The notes beneath the pieces are model-generated. The model had not been told where the DNA came from. It did no database searches and was given only the letters and a program-made list of their open reading frames with translations. A stretch of 64,000 nucleotides of DNA from a virus (taxonomy: Duplodnaviria; Caudoviricetes), in IMG/VR virus record IMGVR_UViG_3300032327_000953, positions 64,001-128,000 of that record. The stretch is one strand, 5' to 3'. Each line of letters begins with the position of its first letter. Positions within the stretch are counted from its first letter, which is position 1. Below are positions 1-27,841 of this stretch, in pieces. Position numbers and translations under genes: made by a program.

Positions 1-3000
1 TGGTGTTGATGCCGCTACATTTAAAGGAGTTGGTTGACGACCACCAACAGCACTTCTCATCATGGTCATCAGATCTAATGCTTCAAATGGGGCTTTTCCT
101 TCAGCTTCTCTTTCGGCATTTTTTCGTTTACGACCGAATGTTGCTTCTCTGCCAGTTTTAGCATCTGACACAGTATCTCTCATATTCTCGATATCATTAG
201 AAGAATATCCACGAGAAGAGGCTATTTCTGATTGTCTAACTCTAGCTCTATCTAACTCGATATCTCCAAGAGCTTTATTTCCAGCACTTGTCATTGCTCT
301 CATAGAATTTACAACATCATCACCTAAAGTAGCAAAATTACTTCTTACAACTTTTTGTATCTCAATTAGAGATTTTCTCATAGTTTCCCAAGAACTTGTA
401 TCAATAGTTGGTAAATCTATTTTATCTACAGCACTACTGACTTCATCGCTAAAAGTTGCCATTACAGCAGCCATACTAGATCTAAATATAGACATTTCTG
501 CAGGAGTCACCGCTTCTCCACCCATCTCGAATCTTTGTATTCCAACAGCTCCACCTTTATTATATCGTCCATATTTATTCATGGTATTTAATTTACCATA
601 ACCAATCTTCTTAGCTTGTGCTTGTGGAACTACTAATTCTCCTGGAGTTAATAATGCTGGAACTTCTCCTCCGGAAGCAAACCCTTGAGATCCTCCTAGT
701 CCTAATTTTGCAACACTACTCTTTCGTATAACAAAATCACCAGCAGTTAATGAAGCAGGGACGGTGTCTCTGTTTCCTGTTCCGGGAACAATACCGCCAC
801 TAGCAAATTTGGGGGTACGAGCAGCAAAATAAGATAATGCCATTGCTCTAGAGTCTGGTTTAGCATCGGGTCTTACAACATCCGGACCTTTAATTAAATT
901 AGGGCTTTTACTATAACCAGTTTGTAATACCCATGCTGGATCATCAGCTGGTGGCCACGTTTCTTTTTTTCCATATAATTTTGGATCTAATAGAGCTTCA
1001 TTATGTGTCCAGTCTTTTGGTTCTAAGGGGGTTTTTTTAACATCTCCCCTATTTTTGAAATAATATTCCCATACTTTTTTAGCATCACCACTAACTACTG
1101 ATCTGTCAGAAGTTAACATTGCTCCTTTTTCGGTGACTGCTTCCATCAATATGTCATAAAGTCTTGGGCCATATCCTTTGGTGGCACTAGATAAGCCAAC
1201 ATAATATAGATTATCTCTTAATTTATAAGCACTAGCATATCCTTGTCTACTATTCTCTTGTCCACTCTTTAGATATCCAGCACTAATCATTCCAGAATCT
1301 TCAGTAATACTAATTTTACCGTATTGTTTTTCTTTTTTCTGTTCAGCTTCAGCAACTCCACCCACAGCAAATCTTCTAACTCTGCCACCCAAGGCTAATT
1401 TAACAGCCTCTGCTCCACCAGTTAGATAACTTCCAATCTCTTCTCTAACTTTCTCTAAACTACTACCATCAATTGTTCTTTTAACTTCTGTTGGAATACC
1501 AGGGTCAATACCAGGAAAGAATTGGGCTGCACTACCTAAACCGTCAGGATAGTCTATGGCTCTGTTCTGTTTAGCGTCTGGTCTTACTGGAGCGCCTAAA
1601 ATAGCCAAAGCTTTTTCTATTATGGCACCCTCAATATTACCCTGACCCATTTTCTCATCTAGTTCTGATGTTGTAGATTGTGGTTCAATATATTGAAATC
1701 CTTTTTTACCAGCTTTATGAGCAGCTCTGATGTTATCTAAGTTATCATCAATAAGTTTTTCTTGTTGTTGTAAATTAGCAGCTTTTAATGATGCAATATT
1801 GCTACTAGCTCCACCACTAACACCAGTAACATCATCTTCAGAATAAGGTAAACCTAAACGCTGTAGTGTTGAGGCAAGAAGATCAGCCGTACTTTGTGGT
1901 CTGGCTGTTAGTATTCTGGTTCTTTTAATGAACGATGGGTCTTGGTCTATTAAGGATTTTAATTTATCTGCTAGTCTTGTTGTTCTTGCTTTTCCAAGAG
2001 CTGCTTTTACTGCATCTCTATTTGAATATTGTGGGATATCAGGCTTGCCAGCAGCATCAAGAATGTCTGCTCCCTCAACTAATGTTTTGTCAAAATCAAA
2101 AGCTAAGTTTTCGCCACCACCAAAAATATTTTTATTCTGTACATTCTCTGCAAATTTTTGAGCAAGTGCTGATGACTCCTTCTGCATTTGTCTTGCTTCT
2201 TCCAAATATGTGCTGCCAAAACCTCTGGCGGTAGCATAAACATCAGTGCCTCCAATATTCCATTCAAATTCTTTTTCATAATCCATTGGTAATAAACCAG
2301 CAATACCAAAATGAAGAGCCTTAGCTTGATACTCTTCTAATCTTTTAGCTTCTGCAGCATCTCTTATACCTTTTGCATCTAAAGCTTTATTGATAAAGTC
2401 TGCTGCTTGTTCTAAGCCTTTACCAGCTTTAATATTTCCTGCCTGTAATAGCGAGCTTAATGTTCTATCTCCACTACCAATACCAAGTATTCTTTTAACT
2501 CCAGCGGGACCACCCAATCCACCCAACTGTTCTAGTATAACATCCTGAATACTTTTACTTTTTTCTTGGGCCAATTGAGCAACTCTACCAACTGGCATTT
2601 GAGCTTGTGAGCTTTGACCCATAACTCTCATTGCCGGAACATTGCCCATAGTTGCTGGTGCAGAAAAGTCTAGAGCGTAGTTTTGTGGATCTTTTTGGGC
2701 TAATGCATCTAATAATTTATATGGGGTAAATCCAGTAGCAGATTTCATCTTTTGTTTTTTAGTTCTTAACTCTTTTAGAACTTCTACTTTAGCTGCATAT
2801 TCTGGATCTTCCTCTATTTTTTTGGAATCTATTCTTTTAATTCCAAGAGCTTCTATCTCTTTATCTATGTGGCTCATTTCCGCTTGAGCTTCTTTTTGAG
2901 CTTGTTCTATAAGAGATGGTAAAACACTAGCTCTATTTTGTATTTTTCCAATATTATTAGAAACGAGATCATATACGCCAGGAGATAATACTGATTGAAG

Positions 3001-6000
3001 TTTAGCCATATCTCCAGCTATAATTAAATCTCTAACCATTGTTCCACTAATGCCGCCAGTTCTTTCTATACTCTTAACGTCATATCCAGCTTGTTTATAT
3101 TTTGCTGTTTGATCTTCTGTTTTATCTGCAACAAAGGCTGTGCTACCTTTACCAGGAATTAATACTTGTCTTCTGTCGGAACCTTGTTGAGTGATATCAA
3201 AACCTTGAGGAACCTCAAAATCTCTTGGTTTGGGAAGTACAGTGGCACCCTTTGCTCCGAAACCAGCCTTAGCCAATAATACTCTAGCGTCTTGATCAAA
3301 TATGGCTGTGCGATAAGATGATGGATCTACGGCCTCATTAGCTCCAACTAATGCTATAAAATCTTCTGGAGGAATACCCATAGCAGCAGCAGCATCCATA
3401 ATCGATTCATGACCAGCTGTAGTTGGAGCAAATCCACCCCATGTGAAACCAATTCTCTTCTTAATAATATCTACTAATTCATTGCCACTCTTTCTTCTTA
3501 GTCTACCAGAACCGCTTCTTCCTAATACTGTAGATTTAGCTCCTAGCTTATCTGATAATAATGCCTCGCCAACAGCAGTATCTGTTGAAACGCCCATGGT
3601 AGTTCCAGGTTGACGACCCTCTAAACCGATCCCCGTAACATCTCTTGACCCTCTTTGATCTTTTACTCTGCTTCTTTCTGCACTAGTGGTTGAACTTAAT
3701 GTATATGCTCTATCAACATCTCCAAAGAAATCATCCATTTTAGTTTTACTTACACTACTAGTAAGAATTAATATTTCAGTAGCCCTATCAATATCTTCTG
3801 GACTAAGAATTGGAAATCTTTCTGTTTGTCTTAGTTTAGCGCTATCTGTGCCTTGACCACGAGCTAATGTTGTTTTACCGCTACCAGCAACGCCATATAT
3901 TGCTCTTAGTTTTTGAATATTAGCAGATTTTCGCGCATTAACAGCTAGCTTGGTAAGATAGTCTGAATAGATTCTTGGACCTTCAGATCCTGTTTCTTTC
4001 ATTCCTTTTTCTACAACAGCTTTATTAGCTTCATTGGCTATAACATCATAATCAATATATCCTACTTTTCTTTGAGCTACTCCACCTTTTTCAAATTTTT
4101 GAATTATACCGCCAAGATTTTTTTCTTCAAATCTACCTGTTAATAGTTTTTTCTCTTTTAGTTTTGCTACTAGATCAGGAGCCTTAAACATTGGCCTACC
4201 AAAAACATCATACTGATTAGTACCTTTAAATATCTTTGTTAAGTCATCTGAACTTTTACTGGAAGCCCACTCTGTTGTTAGATCTTTAGCCTGCTGGGCT
4301 TTCTTTTTTTCTTTTGCTGTATAGTTTTTAGCTCCTTTACCCTTAACTTCATATGTATCAGCACCAACCAAACGAGTTAAAGTTTTATATGGAGTAGCTG
4401 TTGGAGTAAAATCAACCCTTAAACTGTCTCCATCGTACACACTATCTAGTTCTACTTTAGAAACACCACCACCCTTTTTGAATTTCTGAACACCATTATT
4501 TATTTTATGAAGATTACTGGATCCAACAGCTCTTGCAGATTTTTTATTAACAACGAACTCGCCAGGAGTTAATAGTGCAGGAACGCTATCGGTATTACCT
4601 GATCCTGGAACGCTACCTCCCCTAGCAAATTTTCTAACTACTCCACCACGATTTAAGGTAGGGCCTCCACCACCAGGAGGTAAACTAGAAAGATTATTAT
4701 TCAGAGATGTAATCTCATTCAATAGTTGTGTCATAACACCATTGCCAAGATTATCTATTGAGGCAGTTAGTGGGTTAATAGCTGTGGTAAGATTATTTAA
4801 TGCTGTTGTTGTTTTATCAAGAGCAGCACTATTGTCAGTATATGAATCAGCTATCTTTTGGGATTTTGCGGCGGCTGCTTGATCCTGACCTCCAGCTGGG
4901 GATCCATTTGGTTTAACTTTTCTTAGTCCTCCAACGAAACCACCAACAAAACTAGTTAATGCTTTGGCTCCTTTGATAGCTCCAATAGCGGTAATAATTG
5001 GTAGTAATGGTTTAGCAACATCTGCAACTTTGATAAAGGTATTAGCTAGACTCAATCCAAGGCTAACTAATGTTTTAAAACTATCACTATTGCCAATATC
5101 TCTAATTAATGCAACAAAGGATTCTCTTGTTTTTGAAAATTGAACTGCTAATGATGCTTGTGCTTTCACAGCATCCATAGCTAATGATGATTGTCCTCTT
5201 TGAGCCACACCCAATGCTTGTTGAGCAGTAGCGAACTCTTGGATTAATGGCAGAACCTTGCCGATCTGTCTGAAACCACCAAGTTCTTCTACAATTCTGG
5301 AAAAGCTAGTATCTCTTGGATCTAGCTTACCCAATCCTTCGCTTAATAATTTAACTGCTTTATAAGCTCCTACGAATTTACCTTCAACATCAAGAAGATT
5401 AACACCATATTCTTTTAAGGCGTCAATGGTATCTTCTCTTTGAATTCTAGTAAAGATGGTTCTTAAACCGGTAGCAATAGTTTCTGCACTTTCACGAGTG
5501 GTAGCTCGTACGCTAGTAAATACCGCAATAAATTCATTTAGAGCATCTGTTCCTTGACTAACGCCTTTACTTGCAGCAGCAAACACACCACCGGTACGCT
5601 GAATAGCGGTAATAATATCACTAGCTTCAACAGCAAAACCAGCAGCAACAGCATTAATAGAACCTAATGCTTTATCTAAATCTTCTGTACTAATTTTGAA
5701 CTGACGCATTAATGCGATACTACCTTCGACCGTATCATTAAGGTTGTCGAATGATGGGGCCAAAGCTGTTAATGCCAATGCTTTAAGGGCTTGATCTGTT
5801 TCTCTGGCGCTAAAACCAGCTTGTGCTAATGTATCAGATATCTTAATAAGATCAGAAGAAGCAACTCCCAATCCTGTGGATAATCCAGTAATGGTATCTG
5901 TTATTCTACTAAGCTGATCATATGATTCGCCAGTAATCTGAGTTAATCTTACTAACTGTCTATCAAAATCAATAAACTCTTGAGTGGCCTTCGATACAGC

Positions 6001-6465
6001 ATTAAGTAGTCCAAAGATTGCTCCTGTGGCAAAATTAAATGCGGCAAAACGACGAACAGCAAGAGCAGACTGTCTACCAAATTCTTCCATCTCACTTCTT
6101 GCTTCTACTGTTCCTTTTTTCAATTTAGCCATCTGCTGAGTGGTGGCTTGTGCTGATGATACTATCTGGGACATGGAGGAGTTTGATCCATTAAGGGCTC
6201 CTCCAAGACTATTGATAGCACCAACCAAACTAGTGATATTGGTGGTTGTTGATGCAGAAGCTTGGGCTGTTATTTGTAGTTCTTTATTTAGACGGGCCAA
6301 AGCATTTGATGTATTAAGTATTGATCTTTCTGCTGATTTATCTAACTTAACTTTAACGGTAGCGTCTACGGTACCAATCTCTCTTCTAATAGCAGATGCT
6401 ATTTGTCTGAGATTACCTGGTCCTCTTAAATTAAGTTCAGCTGTAAGATTAAAACCTTTTGCCAT
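1..6465 (-). CDS. Tail tape measure protein (TP901-type N-terminal core) with C-terminal enzyme-like cargo domains; runs off the window edge
   Basis: Not in the ORF track. ATG at 6465 (MAKGFNLTAELNLRGPG...) and the frame stayed open in every segment I translated down to position 1. Contains helical TMP-like sequence (EFIDFDRQLVRLTQITG; FAVEASDIITAIQRTG) and F-x-x-GG modules. Lies downstream of the major tail gene. Confidence 0.9.
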   Translation of the reverse strand, partial: MAKGFNLTAELNLRGPGNLRQIASAIRREIGTVDATVKVKLDKSAERSILNTSNALARLNKELQITAQASASTTTNITSLVGAINSLGGALNGSNSSMSQIVSSAQATTQQMAKLKKGTVEARSEMEEFGRQSALAVRRFAAFNFATGAIFGLLNAVSKATQEFIDFDRQLVRLTQITGESYDQLSRITDTITGLSTGLGVASSDLIKISDTLAQAGFSARETDQALKALALTALAPSFDNLNDTVEGSIALMRQFKISTEDLDKALGSINAVAAGFAVEASDIITAIQRTGGVFAAASKGVSQGTDALNEFIAVFTSVRATTRESAETIATGLRTIFTRIQREDTIDALKEYGVNLLDVEGKFVGAYKAVKLLSEGLGKLDPRDTSFSRIVEELGGFRQIGKVLPLIQEFATAQQALGVAQRGQSSLAMDAVKAQASLAVQFSKTRESFVALIRDIGNSDSFKTLVSLGLSLANTFIKVADVAKPLLPIITAIGAIKGAKALTSFVGGFVGGLRKVKPNGSPAGGQDQAAAAKSQKIADSYTDNSAALDKTTTALNNLTTAINPLTASIDNLGNGVMTQLLNEITSLNNNLSSLPPGGGGPTLNRGGVVRKFARGGSVPGSGNTDSVPALLTPGEFVVNKKSARAVGSSNLHKINNGVQKFKKGGGVSKVELDSVYDGDSLRVDFTPTATPYKTLTRLVGADTYEVKGKGAKNYTAKEKKKAQQAKDLTTEWASSKSSDDLTKIFKGTNQYDVFGRPMFKAPDLVAKLKEKKLLTGRFEEKNLGGIIQKFEKGGVAQRKVGYIDYDVIANEANKAVVEKGMKETGSEGPRIYSDYLTKLAVNARKSANIQKLRAIYGVAGSGKTTLARGQGTDSAKLRQTERFPILSPEDIDRATEILILTSSVSKTKMDDFFGDVDRAYTLSSTTSAERSRVKDQRGSRDVTGIGLEGRQPGTTMGVSTDTAVGEALLSDKLGAKSTVLGRSGSGRLRRKSGNELVDIIKKRIGFTWGGFAPTTAGHESIMDAAAAMGIPPEDFIALVGANEAVDPSSYRTAIFDQDARVLLAKAGFGAKGATVLPKPRDFEVPQGFDITQQGSDRRQVLIPGKGSTAFVADKTEDQTAKYKQAGYDVKSIERTGGISGTMVRDLIIAGDMAKLQSVLSPGVYDLVSNNIGKIQNRASVLPSLIEQAQKEAQAEMSHIDKEIEALGIKRIDSKKIEEDPEYAAKVEVLKELRTKKQKMKSATGFTPYKLLDALAQKDPQNYALDFSAPATMGNVPAMRVMGQSSQAQMPVGRVAQLAQEKSKSIQDVILEQLGGLGGPAGVKRILGIGSGDRTLSSLLQAGNIKAGKGLEQAADFINKALDAKGIRDAAEAKRLEEYQAKALHFGIAGLLPMDYEKEFEWNIGGTDVYATARGFGSTYLEEARQMQKESSALAQKFAENVQNKNIFGGGENLAFDFDKTLVEGADILDAAGKPDIPQYSNRDAVKAALGKARTTRLADKLKSLIDQDPSFIKRTRILTARPQSTADLLASTLQRLGLPYSEDDVTGVSGGASSNIASLKAANLQQQEKLIDDNLDNIRAAHKAGKKGFQYIEPQSTTSELDEKMGQGNIEGAIIEKALAILGAPVRPDAKQNRAIDYPDGLGSAAQFFPGIDPGIPTEVKRTIDGSSLEKVREEIGSYLTGGAEAVKLALGGRVRRFAVGGVAEAEQKKEKQYGKISITEDSGMISAGYLKSGQENSRQGYASAYKLRDNLYYVGLSSATKGYGPRLYDILMEAVTEKGAMLTSDRSVVSGDAKKVWEYYFKNRGDVKKTPLEPKDWTHNEALLDPKLYGKKETWPPADDPAWVLQTGYSKSPNLIKGPDVVRPDAKPDSRAMALSYFAARTPKFASGGIVPGTGNRDTVPASLTAGDFVIRKSSVAKLGLGGSQGFASGGEVPALLTPGELVVPQAQAKKIGYGKLNTMNKYGRYNKGGAVGIQRFEMGGEAVTPAEMSIFRSSMAAVMATFSDEVSSAVDKIDLPTIDTSSWETMRKSLIEIQKVVRSNFATLGDDVVNSMRAMTSAGNKALGDIELDRARVRQSEIASSRGYSSNDIENMRDTVSDAKTGREATFGRKRKNAEREAEGKAPFEALDLMTMMRSAVGGRQPTPLNVAASTP

Positions 6466-22570: not shown

Positions 22571-25500
22571 CTACACTCCTATTACCGTTACTCGGTATTG
22601 GTTTGTTGTTGGTGCAGATACAAATATTACTTGGATAGAATTGGTACCCACATAAAGTATATCAGGATAAACATAATAACCAGTGGCAACTTCTCTAACG
22701 ATGACGAAAGAGTCGCTAGTTACACCTAGACTATGGGTGACTGTATAGGTGGTGTTAATTCCATCTCCTATTGTTGTGGAATATGTTGATGCTATACCCT
22801 TTGTGCCTTGAACACCTTGGCTATTTAGATTACCCTGAACACCTTGAAGACCTTGGGTTCCTTGACTATTTAATGTGCCCTGTACTCCTTGAGTCCCTTG
22901 ACTATTTAATGCTCCTTGTACACCTTGACTTCCCTGACTACCATTAGATCCAACAACTCCTTGAACACCCTGCAAACCTTGAACGCCTTGACTTCCGTTC
23001 GATCCGGCACTACCAACGGTACCTTGTACGCCCTGACTGCCTGCCCCAGCTACTCCCTGAGTTCCTTGAGATACTGTAGATGCTATAGTAAGAGTATCAG
23101 TGCCTGCATCGTAATTGAGAGATATTGCTGTACCTCCCTGTAATGATGTTGTTAAATTAGCATAACCTCCTTGTAGACCCTGTAATCCTTGACTACCAAG
23201 TAAGCCTTGACTTCCAACACTTCCTTGAACTCCTTGACTACCACCCAATCCCTGAACTCCCTGAGAGCCTTGAATGCCCTGATTTCCATTAGATCCAGAT
23301 GAGCCGGTATTGCCTTGAGCACCCTGACTACCGTTAGATCCAGATGATCCGACAATACCTTGACTACCTTGACTTCCAACAAATCCATTAGAGCCAACTG
23401 TTCCTTGAGTTCCTTGGCTGTTTAATGTTCCCTGAACACCCTGTAGGCCTTGTAGACCTTGACCACCTATACTTCCTTGGAGTCCTTGTGAGCCTTGGTT
23501 GCCCACCAAACCTTGAACACCCTGACTGCCTGTATTACCTAAAGTACCCTGAGTGCCTTGACTACCATTAGATCCGGTACTACCAACGGTACCTTGAACG
23601 CCTTGACTACCGATGCTACCTTGAACACCCTGACTTCCGATACTTCCTTGAAGTCCTTGTGAGCCTTGACTGCCCGTATTACCTAATGTGCCTTGTGTTC
23701 CTTGACTACCATTTGATCCAGTACTGCCAATGGTACCTTGAGTTCCTTGGCTTCCAGCCCCAGTAGTTCCTTGTGTTCCTTGAGATACTGTAGATGCTAT
23801 CGTTAAAGTATCTGTTCCAGCATCATAATTAAGAGTTATTGCTGTACCACCTTGTAATGAAGTGGTTAAGTTAGCATAACCTCCTTGTAGTCCCTGTGTT
23901 CCTTGTATTCCTTGACTACCGATGCTACCTTGAACACCTTGACTACCGATGCTACCTTGAAGTCCCTGCAAACCTTGAATACCCTGACTGCCAATAACTC
24001 CTTGGATACCTTGTAATCCTTGAAGTCCCTGACTTCCACTTAATCCCTGAGATCCTTGACTACCAATAATTCCCTGTAAACCTTGACTTCCTTGAACTCC
24101 CTGAGTTCCTTGTAGACCTTGAACTCCTTGTAGTCCTTGAGAACCTTGAAGCCCTTGACTTCCTATAGTTCCTTGAAGACCTTGAGTTCCTTGAGTTCCT
24201 TGACTACCTTGACTTCCAATACTACCTTGAACACCTTGGGTTCCTTGGCTACCTTGGCTTCCGATGCTTCCGATGCTTCCTTGTGAACCTTGAGATCCTT
24301 GACTACCAATAATACCTTGAAGGCCTTGTAAACCTTGAATTCCTTGACTACCGATACTTCCTTGAGCCCCTTGTAAGCCTTGAACTCCTTGGCTACCAAC
24401 TAAGCCTTGAACACCCTGAGAGCCTTGAGACCCTTGACTTCCAGCATTACCTTGGAGTCCCTGCAGTCCTTGTAACCCCTGACTTCCGATACTACCTTGA
24501 ACGCCTTGACTACCAATAATACCTTGAATTCCCTGTAATCCCTGACTGCCCTGAGACCCAACAAGACCTTGAAGTCCTTGTAATCCTTGAGATCCTTGAT
24601 TTCCAGATAAACCTTGTAAGCCTTGCAAACCTTGAATTCCCTGAGAACCAATACTTCCTTGAACTCCTTGAGAACTTTCTAATCCTTGAACACCCTGATT
24701 ACCCTGTAATCCTTGTACTCCTTGACTACCAATGCTACCTTGAACACCCTGCAAACCTTGACTCCCCTGGCTGCCGATAGTACCTTGAATTCCCTGCAAG
24801 CCTTGACTACCGACAGTTCCTTGAAGTCCTTGGACTCCTTGGCTACCAATACTTCCTTGAACTCCCTGTATCCCCTGTAAACCTTGTATACCCTGACTAC
24901 CAACCAAACCTTGAACACCTTGTCTTCCTTGCAGCCCTTGAGAACCTTGGCTACCTATGGCTCCTTGAACGCCCTGCAAGCCTTGAATGCCTTGTAAACC
25001 TTGGTTACCTTGGACTCCTTGTAAACCTTGACTGCCAATATTTCCTTGAACTCCCTGAGTTCCTTGAGATCCCTGACTACCAATGGTTCCTTGTAGTCCT
25101 TGTAGGCCCTGTAGTCCTTGAGACCCTTGACTTCCGATACTCCCTTGAACCCCTTGTGTGCCTTGACTACCTTGACTACCAGCCAAACCTTGAATACCTT
25201 GCAATCCTTGTAGTCCTTGACTGCCGATACTTCCTTGAACTCCTTGCAAGCCTTGGCTACCCTGACTGCCAACCAAACCTTGAACACCTTGCAACCCCTG
25301 CAAACCCTGCAAACCTTGAACTCCCTGTAATCCTTGAGTTCCTTGTAATCCCTGCAATCCCTGTAATCCTTGGACACCTTGAAGTCCTTGATTACCCTGT
25401 AAGCCTTGAGATCCTTGCAGTCCTTGAACGCCTTGATTTCCCTCTAATCCTTGAATACCTTGGACTCCTTGCACTCCTTGAACGCCTTGTAGTCCCTGTA

Positions 25501-25771
25501 ATCCCTGAATACCTTGAACTCCTTGAGTACCTTGCATTCCCTGTAATCCTTGAACCCCATGTGATCCTTGAAGTCCTTGTGATCCTTGAACACCTTGTGT
25601 ACCTTGAACTCCAGCGATTGGTAATAATGACCATTTAAGTTCACCATCTCCAATTTTTAGTATATTATTTGTTGTATCATATCCTGGCTCTCCAGCCTCT
25701 AATACTGGATCGACATCTATCCACTCAGCATATGAACCTTTGCGGAGCATGAAAATATTATTTGCAGGCAT
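22571..25771 (-). CDS. Collagen-like (Gly-X-Gln) tail fibre with an Mtd_N/hyaluronidase-N-like domain
   Basis: N-terminal [34 protein letters not shown]; very long (G-X-Q)n tract; C-terminal [16 protein letters not shown] domain; start reassigned to MPANN. Confidence 0.85.
23061..23884 (-). repeat. Duplicated ~100-bp non-collagen interruption in the fibre gene (about 23061-23167 and 23783-23884)
   Basis: Both copies encode [16 protein letters not shown][ST][22 protein letters not shown]. Confidence 0.85.
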
Positions 25772-25858
25772 AATTGATCCATTTATAAAGGTGGTCAGGG
25801 ATATAGTAATATACACTTATTTGATGCATACTATATCTATCTGCATATATTGACAATA

Positions 25859-27841
25859 TTAATGGAATATATGTTTCTCTATATTTTTGATACTATTGTT
25901 ATACATTGGTTCAAATTTTGAATAATCTATCAAATCCGGATGAATCCACCAATCTTCAAAAGGAGTACTATCGTCCATAGACACATCTCCAATTAATAGT
26001 TTATACCCTAAAGATTGAAGATAATTTCTAGATTTTTGTCTGTATGATCTGGTCATATCCAAATAGTAGTCATGCTCATATGTTATAATTGAGAATCTAT
26101 ATTTATCAAAAGGAATAGATAATAGAGTTTCGAATGTTTTGCCCGGAGGTTCGCAATCTAACTGTAAGTAATCAAAGTCCGTACCCATATTCAAATCATT
26201 TAATATACTGCTATAGTTTAATTTAGTAGCATCTCCCTGCATAATCTTATTAGATCTATTTGATTGAAATCTATTAACTAATTCTGTATTAATGTCTATA
26301 GATAATCCTTTCCACCCATATTGTTTTTCTAATAGATAAGTATTATTGCCAAAATATGGATCTCCAGCCCCTATCTCTAAATATTTACCATTTCTCTTAC
26401 CATTTGTTGCAGCTAATACAAACAGGTCTTGATATGACTGTGAATAATTCTCTTCTATGTCCTGAGCGCCATCAAATTTAATCTTTAATTTATTATATTG
26501 GTTTTTATGGTATTTAAGATGTTTCTGTCTTTTCTTCTCTATTTCTGTGAGTTGGTACTCAATGGTGGATAGTTGGCTTTCTGTTAATTTATGGTCACTA
26601 TCTATTATAGTATTTAGTAATGATCTAGACTGTTCTATTTTATCCCAGCTATTAGCTCCAGTTGCCCTGCACAATAATATAGACTCTTTACCAAAATATC
26701 CTATATCTATCCTGAGTGAAATATTATTAAAATCACAAATTTCTGAAGCTATAGAAGAATAAGTATAGCAGTCATACCATTGATGGTATTTTTCATAATG
26801 CTTTGAAAGTAGAAAGTATGCTTCCGGTCTTTTTGGTAATAAGGTAATAGCATGTTTTAATAAATGAGTTGATGTAAAGTCCCTACTTTTTTGAGCATCA
26901 AAACAGAAATATCCACGTATTAGACATTCATAAGATAAGTTAATATCGTTTGTTCTTTCTGCGCATCTTAGGTAATGACTAAATGCTGATGCTGTATGTC
27001 CTAATTTTTCATATTCATAAGCCATATCGAAATTCAGCTCTGCATTTTCTGTATCTAAAGCAAATCTGGTAGTCAGATCAATAGTATTAATATCAGATAT
27101 TTGTTTTTTATGTCCTTCATTTTTCCACCAATTTAAAATATAGTTATAAGAATTAACATGTATTTGATCGTTAGATTGTGAGAAATTAGTATTTGTATTA
27201 TTAATATCTTCAACAAAAAGAGGCATATTATATACAGATCCAATTCCTTCAAATAGTATATTTTCTACAATTGGAAAAAGGTCATATGTTACATACTCTC
27301 CGGGACTGATCTGAATTTTAGCATTAAAGTTATCAAGGTTAAAATGAGTATCAGAAATGTAGTATTTGCTAATTAGCTTTTTGGCGTATTCTCTTTTAAT
27401 TAAATAAGCCTGACATCCCCAGTCACTATTTAATCTTGATCTGGTTTTTATCTCTATATTATCAAAAGATTCTCTAATGCAACTAAGTTGAATACATTCC
27501 CAGTCTTGAGGTAGAGAGTATATAAAATATGAGAAAGTAAAGTTCCAATAATCGATAGTCTCTAAACTAATATCGTCTTCCATTATCATAACATATGGAT
27601 CTTCTGATGAGTCTAGCCAATCTTTAATAGCTAATAAATGAGAGGTTGTGGGTCCCTTACTATTATCATGTATATCATTTATGTATTTACCAGTAAGAGC
27701 AAATCTATCTACTTGATATGGTTTAAATTTTACTATTTTATAGTTATCTATATTATAAGCAGAACATTGATCTATGAAATTATCTATCCTATGGTCTGAT
27801 CCTTCTGTGGTTATGCAGATAATGCTCGATGATTTAAACAT
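25859..27841 (-). CDS. Fusion of GT25-like glycosyltransferase, TPR region and FkbM-type methyltransferase
   Basis: SHLLAIKDWL...VMIMEDD and GCQAYLI (GT25); RPEAYFLL (TPR); YLEIGAGDPYFGNNT, DYLQLDCE and FEDWW (FkbM-like). Confidence 0.75.
   Translation of the reverse strand: MFKSSSIICITTEGSDHRIDNFIDQCSAYNIDNYKIVKFKPYQVDRFALTGKYINDIHDNSKGPTTSHLLAIKDWLDSSEDPYVMIMEDDISLETIDYWNFTFSYFIYSLPQDWECIQLSCIRESFDNIEIKTRSRLNSDWGCQAYLIKREYAKKLISKYYISDTHFNLDNFNAKIQISPGEYVTYDLFPIVENILFEGIGSVYNMPLFVEDINNTNTNFSQSNDQIHVNSYNYILNWWKNEGHKKQISDINTIDLTTRFALDTENAELNFDMAYEYEKLGHTASAFSHYLRCAERTNDINLSYECLIRGYFCFDAQKSRDFTSTHLLKHAITLLPKRPEAYFLLSKHYEKYHQWYDCYTYSSIASEICDFNNISLRIDIGYFGKESILLCRATGANSWDKIEQSRSLLNTIIDSDHKLTESQLSTIEYQLTEIEKKRQKHLKYHKNQYNKLKIKFDGAQDIEENYSQSYQDLFVLAATNGKRNGKYLEIGAGDPYFGNNTYLLEKQYGWKGLSIDINTELVNRFQSNRSNKIMQGDATKLNYSSILNDLNMGTDFDYLQLDCEPPGKTFETLLSIPFDKYRFSIITYEHDYYLDMTRSYRQKSRNYLQSLGYKLLIGDVSMDDSTPFEDWWIHPDLIDYSKFEPMYNNSIKNIEKHIFH

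Follow-up and report, generated by a model that had tools for sequence, protein, structure and literature searches.

Tape measure proteins (TMPs) are textbook length rulers and, to our knowledge, carry no enzymes beyond cell-wall hydrolase motifs and the RNA polymerase of Thermus phage P23-45. The protein concerned, gp96, is a TMP of 5,002 amino acids (aa) with a fused virion RNA polymerase (RNAP) that transcribes the pre-early genes (PMC10770324), and it is the one experimental precedent for a TMP-fused enzyme working in the host. A phage enzyme of another kind is Bas30_86 (PDB 9X6F/9X6H), the NadR-like component of the NARP3 pathway, for which the conversion of nicotinamide riboside to nicotinamide adenine dinucleotide (NAD+) has been shown experimentally (PMC13464706). 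Here we describe a cassette consisting of a P-loop kinase-fold domain and a HIGH-class nucleotidyltransferase (NTase) domain within a giant TMP. It is encoded in a 64,000-nucleotide stretch of viral DNA, positions 64001-128000 of IMG/VR record IMGVR_UViG_3300032327_000953 (hereafter the window). The cassette is kin to two known kinds of protein: on the one hand TMPs with enzyme cargo or injected polyvalent proteins, on the other bifunctional enzymes resembling NadR.

The likeness to gp96 lies in a giant TMP carrying a working enzyme that is thought to be active in the host when infection begins. In gp96, however, a cellular-type RNAP occupies the N-terminus, whereas the metabolic-type kinase-transferase pair is inserted behind the conserved N-terminal part of the TMP and belongs to a set of several exchangeable cassettes. 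Polyvalent proteins (Iyer et al., 2017, PMC5512222) likewise unite numerous unrelated enzyme domains within a single injected polypeptide and shuffle them as modules, and zeta-like kinase, GNAT, ADP-ribosyltransferase (ART) and nuclease domains are found both in them and in the TMPs considered here. Their scaffold, in contrast, is a MuF, ArdC or metallopeptidase hub. The polyvalent-protein survey mentions tape measure proteins, NMNAT and P-loop kinases 0 times each, and its nucleotidyltransferases are exclusively of the Pol-beta type (PMC5512222). A survey of jumbo phages contained only free-standing fusions of HIGH-NTases to Nudix or P-loop kinase domains, and our literature search retrieved no paper linking a tape measure protein with an adenylyl-/nucleotidyltransferase or a zeta-like kinase domain.

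The source record comprises 238,135 bp with direct terminal repeats and a G+C content of 35%. The open reading frame (ORF) in question has 5,292 codons and lies on the minus strand at genome positions 54587-70465; in the window, its frame is open from position 6465 past the left edge. The tape-measure domain PF10145 was detected at aa 190-385 (E 1.5e-22), the ORF matched tape-measure PHROGs, and in tblastn it aligned at ~23% identity with annotated TMPs from cultured siphophages of Bacillus and Rhodococcus. Relatives sourced from NCBI are annotated as 'TP901 family phage tail tape measure protein', and the gene is located downstream of terminase, portal and collagen-like tail fibre genes on the same strand. 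We conclude that the 5,292-aa ORF is the TMP of an uncultured jumbo siphophage. Towards Bacillus and other siphophages, identity is only ~23-24% for both the N-terminal part of the TMP and the terminase.

A reading of the DNA letters alone (hereafter the sequence-only reading) had proposed that a P-loop kinase and a HIGH-class nucleotidyltransferase with (T/H)xGH and ISxTxVR motifs form a pair inside a TMP. The three motifs on which this proposal was based are indeed located in one minus-strand frame of the 5,292-aa TMP: the P-loop IYGVAGSGKTTLAR at aa 856-869 (window 3900-3859), the TxGH motif IGFTWGGFAPTTAGH at aa 1005-1019 (window 3453-3409) and the ISGTxxR motif GISGTMVRDLIIAGD at aa 1138-1152 (window 3054-3010). 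The fusion of the two domains inside the TMP is confirmed. The features are given below with their window positions; conservation counts refer to 122 full-length copies aligned to a family model, whose identity to the present copy ranges from 25 to 98% (median 40%).

Window 1..6465, minus strand: N-terminal 2,155 codons of the TMP gene; the ORF runs 9,414 nt beyond the left edge, to genome position 54587.
Window ~4119 to ~2596, minus strand: whole cassette, aa ~783-1290, made up of leader, kinase, NTase and helical tail, and thus larger than the span given in the sequence-only reading.
Window 3979..4119, minus strand: cassette leader, aa 783-829, comprising the linker motif F-x-x-G-G (IQKFEKGG) and a ~40-aa conserved stretch.
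Window 3481..3978, minus strand: minimal P-loop kinase-fold domain, aa 830-995.
Window 3871..3894, minus strand: Walker A/P-loop GVAGSGKT, aa 858-865 (K864 in 122/122, G858 in 120/122 and G863 in 118/122 copies).
Window 3793..3795, minus strand: D891, candidate catalytic base in a P-I-L-(S/T)-P-x-D-I motif after the P-loop (D in 117/122).
Window 3613..3654, minus strand: Arg-rich lid-like segment, aa 938-951 (R941 in 120/122, R951 in 119/122, R938 in 97/122 with K in a further 15).
Window 2911..3480, minus strand: HIGH-class NTase domain, aa 996-1185.
Window 3409..3438, minus strand: first NTase signature GGFAPTTAGH (G-x-F-x-P-x-T-x-G-H), aa 1010-1019.
Window 3031..3063, minus strand: second NTase signature RTGGISGTMVR (R-x-x-G-I-S-G-T-x-x-R), aa 1135-1145.
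Window 2596..2910, minus strand: helical tail, aa 1186-1290, which directly follows the NTase in relatives.

The catalytic motifs of both domains are strongly conserved. Four residues, K864 of the P-loop and H1019, S1140 and R1145 of the NTase, are invariant in all 122 copies. In the first NTase signature, P1014 and G1010 are each retained in 121, G1018 in 120 and T1016 in 118 copies; in the second, T1142 is retained in 121 and R1135 in 119. Altogether, 112-121 of the 122 copies keep G858, G861, G863, D891, D918, R941, R951, D962, G1010, P1014, T1016 and G1018, and the same holds for R1052, R1061, P1086, R1135, T1142 and R1178. P-loop kinases characteristically have conserved arginines in their lid, and the Arg-rich segment forms a helix followed by a loop in the predicted model. 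D891 is presumably the catalytic base, since it occupies a place comparable to that of the Asp which follows strand 2 in kinases of the zeta, PNK and DPCK types. The motifs are far beyond chance, because the four residues are invariant and because the region folds with high confidence (see below). Judged from these alignments, the kinase and NTase active sites look intact, under selection and apparently active across more than 100 relatives. The possibility, raised in the sequence-only reading, that the closest homologues are catalytically dead is therefore not borne out.

A search with the TMP N-terminus identified 615 giant-TMP clusters. We counted the two domains in the 120 best of these. 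Kinase and NTase were both present in 60 TMPs and both absent in the other 60, and no TMP (0/120) contained only one of them; the BLAST counts given below refer to 57 cassette-bearing and 63 cassette-free TMPs. The kinase preceded the NTase in every copy examined, with a median gap of 2 residues between the domains. On a tree of the N-terminal 480 residues of the TMPs, presence and absence of the cassette required at least 19 changes, compared to 33-42 with shuffled labels. Thus, the pair moves as a unit and has been gained, lost or exchanged many times. Together with the both-or-neither counts, this identifies it as a swappable, obligately paired cassette.

The flanking segments behave in a similar manner. 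According to BLAST, the leader was present in 50/57 cassette-bearing versus 2/63 cassette-free TMPs, and nearly all relatives have it conserved immediately ahead of the kinase; for the helical tail, the corresponding counts were 31/57 and 0/63. Leader and helical tail therefore travel with the kinase-NTase unit. In cassette-free TMPs, a Pfam search of the corresponding slot revealed nothing in 9/10 proteins and an ART in 1/10, so that functional analogues provided no hint. Relatives with unusual contexts (P0096, P0045, P0065 and P0069) showed no informative Pfam domains either. Among 50,697 phage records, no nucleotide or protein match to the cassette was found, with only chance-level matches appearing at E 10; none of the cultured phages in this collection carries the cassette.

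Searching with aa 830-1185 by phmmer yielded 95 cluster representatives at E <= 1e-3, nearly all of which are proteins of 1,500-7,300 residues that matched the whole 356 residues as a single unit. An AlphaFold2 model calculated from a 46-copy alignment reached a mean predicted local distance difference test score (pLDDT) of 89.4 and a predicted template modeling score (pTM) of 0.85 for the two domains, which suggests a fixed mutual orientation of kinase and NTase. The NTase domain displays a Rossmann-like alpha/beta nucleotide-binding fold. On the basis of the model, aa 996-1185 are assigned to the HIGH-class nucleotidyltransferases and are structurally nearest to the NMNAT/NadD/PPAT group: NMNAT was the best match in the structure comparison, PPAT tied with it, and NadR (score 10.5-10.7), TmcAL (10.0) and the cytidylyltransferases (9-10) were also matched. 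Foldseek retrieved PPAT and NMNAT at E 2e-6 to 1e-5. The PF01467 model, aligned over positions 2-132/133, scored 18.8-19.3 bits on this copy and thus below its gathering cut-off of 21; some relatives exceeded the cut-off (P0069, 22.4 bits), and 14/48 members matched at E <= 0.01. The best full-length match of the NTase family profile was Bas30_86 (9x6f; E 5e-8, profile positions 9-159). Archaeal-type NMNAT (M. jannaschii 1F9A), NadD, NadM and PPAT/CoaD share 13-21% identity with the cassette NTase, which differs from them in its extra family-specific invariant arginines R1052, R1061, R1135 and R1178 and in its fusion to a kinase. A single-sequence search against PDB sequences gave no significant match.

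Folded alone, the kinase domain (aa 830-995) adopted a P-loop kinase fold (pLDDT 87.9), and the best Foldseek match was ng-zeta-1 at E 8e-3. In sequence searches, the family profile matched only the P-loop motif of unrelated ATPases. The Atlas shape search returned only generic AAA_18-like small ATPases (template modeling scores of 0.56-0.57), and the Atlas feature search was uninformative, with a best score of 0.77. We found no free-standing relatives of the kinase, only contig fragments.

The combination of a kinase with a small-molecule-type adenylyltransferase, the rigid fusion and the co-inheritance of both domains argue for two consecutive steps on one metabolite, most simply phosphorylation followed by adenylylation. 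The cassette has an even chance of being a self-contained, catalytically competent, TMP-built enzyme that acts on a small metabolite first as a kinase and then as an adenylyltransferase. We infer this sequential action, the substrate class and the nucleotide used as follows. For the N-terminal P-loop kinase, the probable reaction is phosphorylation of a hydroxyl group on a small nucleoside- or cofactor-like metabolite; the HIGH-class NTase would probably transfer AMP from ATP onto the phosphate thus introduced, so that an ADP-linked product results. Among possible products, the leading single candidate, though a tentative one, is NAD+, made from nicotinamide riboside via nicotinamide mononucleotide (NMN), because the best full-length match of the NTase profile is the NARP3 NMNAT Bas30_86. 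Bas30_86 and the cassette are both phage-encoded and, like NadR, combine a P-loop kinase and a HIGH-class adenylyltransferase in one polypeptide. Moreover, the signature motifs of Bas30_86 and the cassette agree in their unusual forms, with G-x-F-A-P-x-T-x-G-H for the first and R-x-x-x-I-S-x-T-x-x-R for the second. If NAD+ were the product, the cassette would work like NadR or Bas30_86 without belonging to that family.

The location within the TMP would imply presence in the virion and ejection into the host. The cassette would occur in the particle at TMP copy number and enter the host envelope and cytoplasm before or with the DNA; by analogy, it is probably delivered into the host at infection. 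Conceivably, the injected pair is a pre-emptive counter-defence enzyme that acts before phage gene expression, although we regard this as rather doubtful. It would either provide NAD+ on arrival or phosphorylate and adenylylate, and thereby cap, a nucleotide immune signal of low copy number or a messenger derived from NAD. The latter option would suit the few enzyme copies that a virion delivers.

Several observations weigh against NAD+ formation and the associated role in infection. The sequence-only reading had cited NadR as a pairing of an NMN adenylyltransferase with a P-loop kinase. In NadR, however, the NMNAT is N-terminal to the RNK domain, and enterobacterial NadR has an N-terminal helix-turn-helix (HTH), whereas in the cassette the kinase (aa 830-995) comes before the NTase (aa 996-1185), an HTH is missing, and no RNK/AAA_28 (PF13521) similarity was detected in the kinase domain. 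The NadR-like architecture thus does not apply, and by sequence criteria the cassette is not a member of the NadR family. The NMN-holding aromatic residues of Bas30_86 (Y86, W90) have no aligned conserved aromatics here, in a loop whose alignment is unreliable. Few TMP copies per virion, as expected from the typical TMP copy number, would provide little catalytic capacity against a depleting NADase. Active delivery, which we infer, would moreover require that globular domains pass through, or are stored in, the narrow tail tube. NADases leave ADP-ribose and nicotinamide, so that a kinase and an NMNAT alone cannot rebuild NAD+ but need a supply of nicotinamide riboside; NARP3 includes a transporter because such a source is needed. 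The known partners in NAD+ reconstitution are the PnuC transporter in NARP3, NAMPT in NARP2, and the PRPP-synthetase-like Adps together with the NAMPT-like Namat in NARP1 (PMC13464706). In the complete 238-kb genome, we detected no PnuC, NAMPT or PRPP-synthetase-like gene (PF04973, PF04095, PF13793) and no Nudix, PF03496 ART or NAD-dependent ligase gene. Hence, there is no NAD-related gene context.

The NTase matches themselves also point to other products. The NTase profile matched the FAD synthetase RibF over the whole domain (E 1.5e-5), and its ISGT region matched the TmcAL-like protein MJ0951 (3gmi) at E 1.6e-8. Of 48 cassette members, 28 matched PF16581 and 4 matched PF08218. The free-standing relatives found are CitC-like (E 3e-7 to 8e-4), the Atlas shape search was dominated by bacterial CitC clusters, and the Atlas feature search was led by viral clusters with PF01467 and PF08218. 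Thus, the PPAT, FAD synthetase and CitC/TmcAL families match the NTase nearly as well as NMNAT does. The earlier assignment to the NadD/NadM/CoaD type holds in that NMNAT, NadD and PPAT are nearest and Bas30_86 is the best full-length match; it does not hold to the exclusion of these near-equal families. Given the reversed domain order, the NARP1/2/3 partner genes not found in the genome and the near-equal families, NAD+ reconstitution against Thoeris/SIR2, as proposed in the sequence-only reading, is therefore a candidate and not a finding.

The CitC- and TmcAL-type matches just listed, from MJ0951 and the two Pfam families to the free-standing relatives and both Atlas searches, would favor a ligase. 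It would form an acyl-adenylate, for example from acetate, and pass the acyl group to a thiol or an RNA base, with the P-loop domain serving a separate role; we consider this very unlikely. Another reading is synthesis of coenzyme A (CoA), in which a PPAT-like NTase converts 4'-phosphopantetheine to dephospho-CoA before a dephospho-CoA-kinase-like domain acts, so that the transferase would come first. Such an enzyme would resemble eukaryotic CoA synthase with swapped domain order. In the profile comparison, however, PPATs scored only E 2e-3 to 0.5, mostly over the first motif and well behind Bas30_86, and DPCK matches were no better than those of other kinase families. We saw no CoA-related gene context and know of no CoA-depleting defence, and we regard CoA synthesis as improbable, if slightly less so than the ligase.

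The kinase domain invites a different comparison. Zeta toxins and AvrRxo1 (PDB 6EPG/6EPI, 4Z8Q) resemble the cassette kinase, whose best Foldseek match is ng-zeta-1, in the P-loop kinase fold, in a helix at the N-terminus and in the conserved Asp that follows the P-loop. A kinase of this type might phosphorylate a sugar hydroxyl of a host nucleotide-linked metabolite (UDP-GlcNAc, NAD+) or of a nucleotide immune signal, and the NTase would modify such a molecule further or consume it. Injection of the pair would then lead to a weaker envelope, poisoned host metabolism or blunted signalling instead of a new cofactor. We rate both this chemistry and these effects as unlikely, yet clearly ahead of CoA synthesis. 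A further view denies the pair any role after ejection: it would act only in the producing cell, as abundant unassembled late TMP, or it would be largely a spacer or a filler resembling cargo, enzymatically idle in the newly infected host. The cassette is absent from half of the closest TMPs, folded domains of ~40 kDa are hard to fit into the tail-tube lumen, and late expression would presumably yield far more enzyme copies than the virion. A spacer, however, is difficult to reconcile with catalytic residues that are invariant in 122 copies. The TMP is the one tail protein known to be ejected; fusion to it, like the precedent of the P23-45 virion RNA polymerase (PMC10770324), speaks for delivery, and we consider the whole view, like the ligase, very unlikely.

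The TMP carries further cargo. A staphylococcal-nuclease-like domain without a Pfam match is located just upstream of the leader (aa ~665-780, window 4126-4470, minus strand); it was counted in 21/57 cassette-bearing and 0/63 cassette-free relatives in a raw BLAST count uncorrected for kinship and BLAST sensitivity. A HAD-type phosphatase-like domain with the DxDxT motif at FDFDKT occupies aa ~1445-1600 (window 1666-2133, minus strand). We considered an obligate kinase-NTase-HAD trio and ruled it out, since the HAD domain occurred in 24/57 TMPs with and 38/63 without the cassette and in variable position. With 62/120 relatives carrying it, whether or not the pair is present, the HAD domain is a more widespread TMP cassette of its own, and it sometimes precedes the pair. 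For a GNAT-like region at aa ~1715-1880 (window 826-1323, minus strand), present in 28/120 relatives, the NCBIfam matches were weak throughout (ArsN1-type acetyltransferase, E 0.046). The motif G-G ... D-x-V-P-A-x-L-T-P-G-E-F-V, with F-x-x-G-G joints ahead of it, recurs at aa 606-650, 1886-1945, ~3495-3530 and ~5085-5110. This LTPGEFV-type motif lies at the borders of the cargo region and again near the TMP C-terminus; its last two copies lie left of the window.

ART (PF03496-like) cassettes were present in 25/120 related TMPs (P0017, P0011, P0049, P0019, P0020, P0113, P0115, P0136 and others) and in several of them directly upstream of the kinase-NTase cassette, yet statistically independent of it. 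A first BLAST count (13/57 versus 2/63) had suggested an association, which was rejected after an iterative search (14/60 versus 11/60) and a comparison of phylogenetically independent pairs (median p 1). According to precomputed Pfam lists, some giant TMPs (P0074, P0139, P0122-P0124, P0185) contain EF-hand families (PF13499, PF13202, PF00036) and PF03983. Elsewhere in the window, the structural module encodes a tail fibre protein of 1,081 aa with collagen repeats, whose PHROG matches are very strong (window 22571-25816, minus strand). It is followed by a 660-aa protein with an N-terminal glucosyltransferase-like domain (window 25859-27841, minus strand; phrog_2835, E 7e-34).

Our analysis reveals a large uncultured phage lineage, comprising at least 615 giant-TMP clusters, that uses the TMP as a scaffold for swappable enzyme cassettes. 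If the kinase-NTase pair is delivered in active form, it would represent a compact new bifunctional enzyme family, and these phages would inject small-molecule metabolic or counter-defence enzymes before gene expression, which would widen the concept of virion effectors. Should the counter-defence reading be true, the cassette would provide the first known case of a TMP that delivers a metabolic or anti-signalling enzyme.

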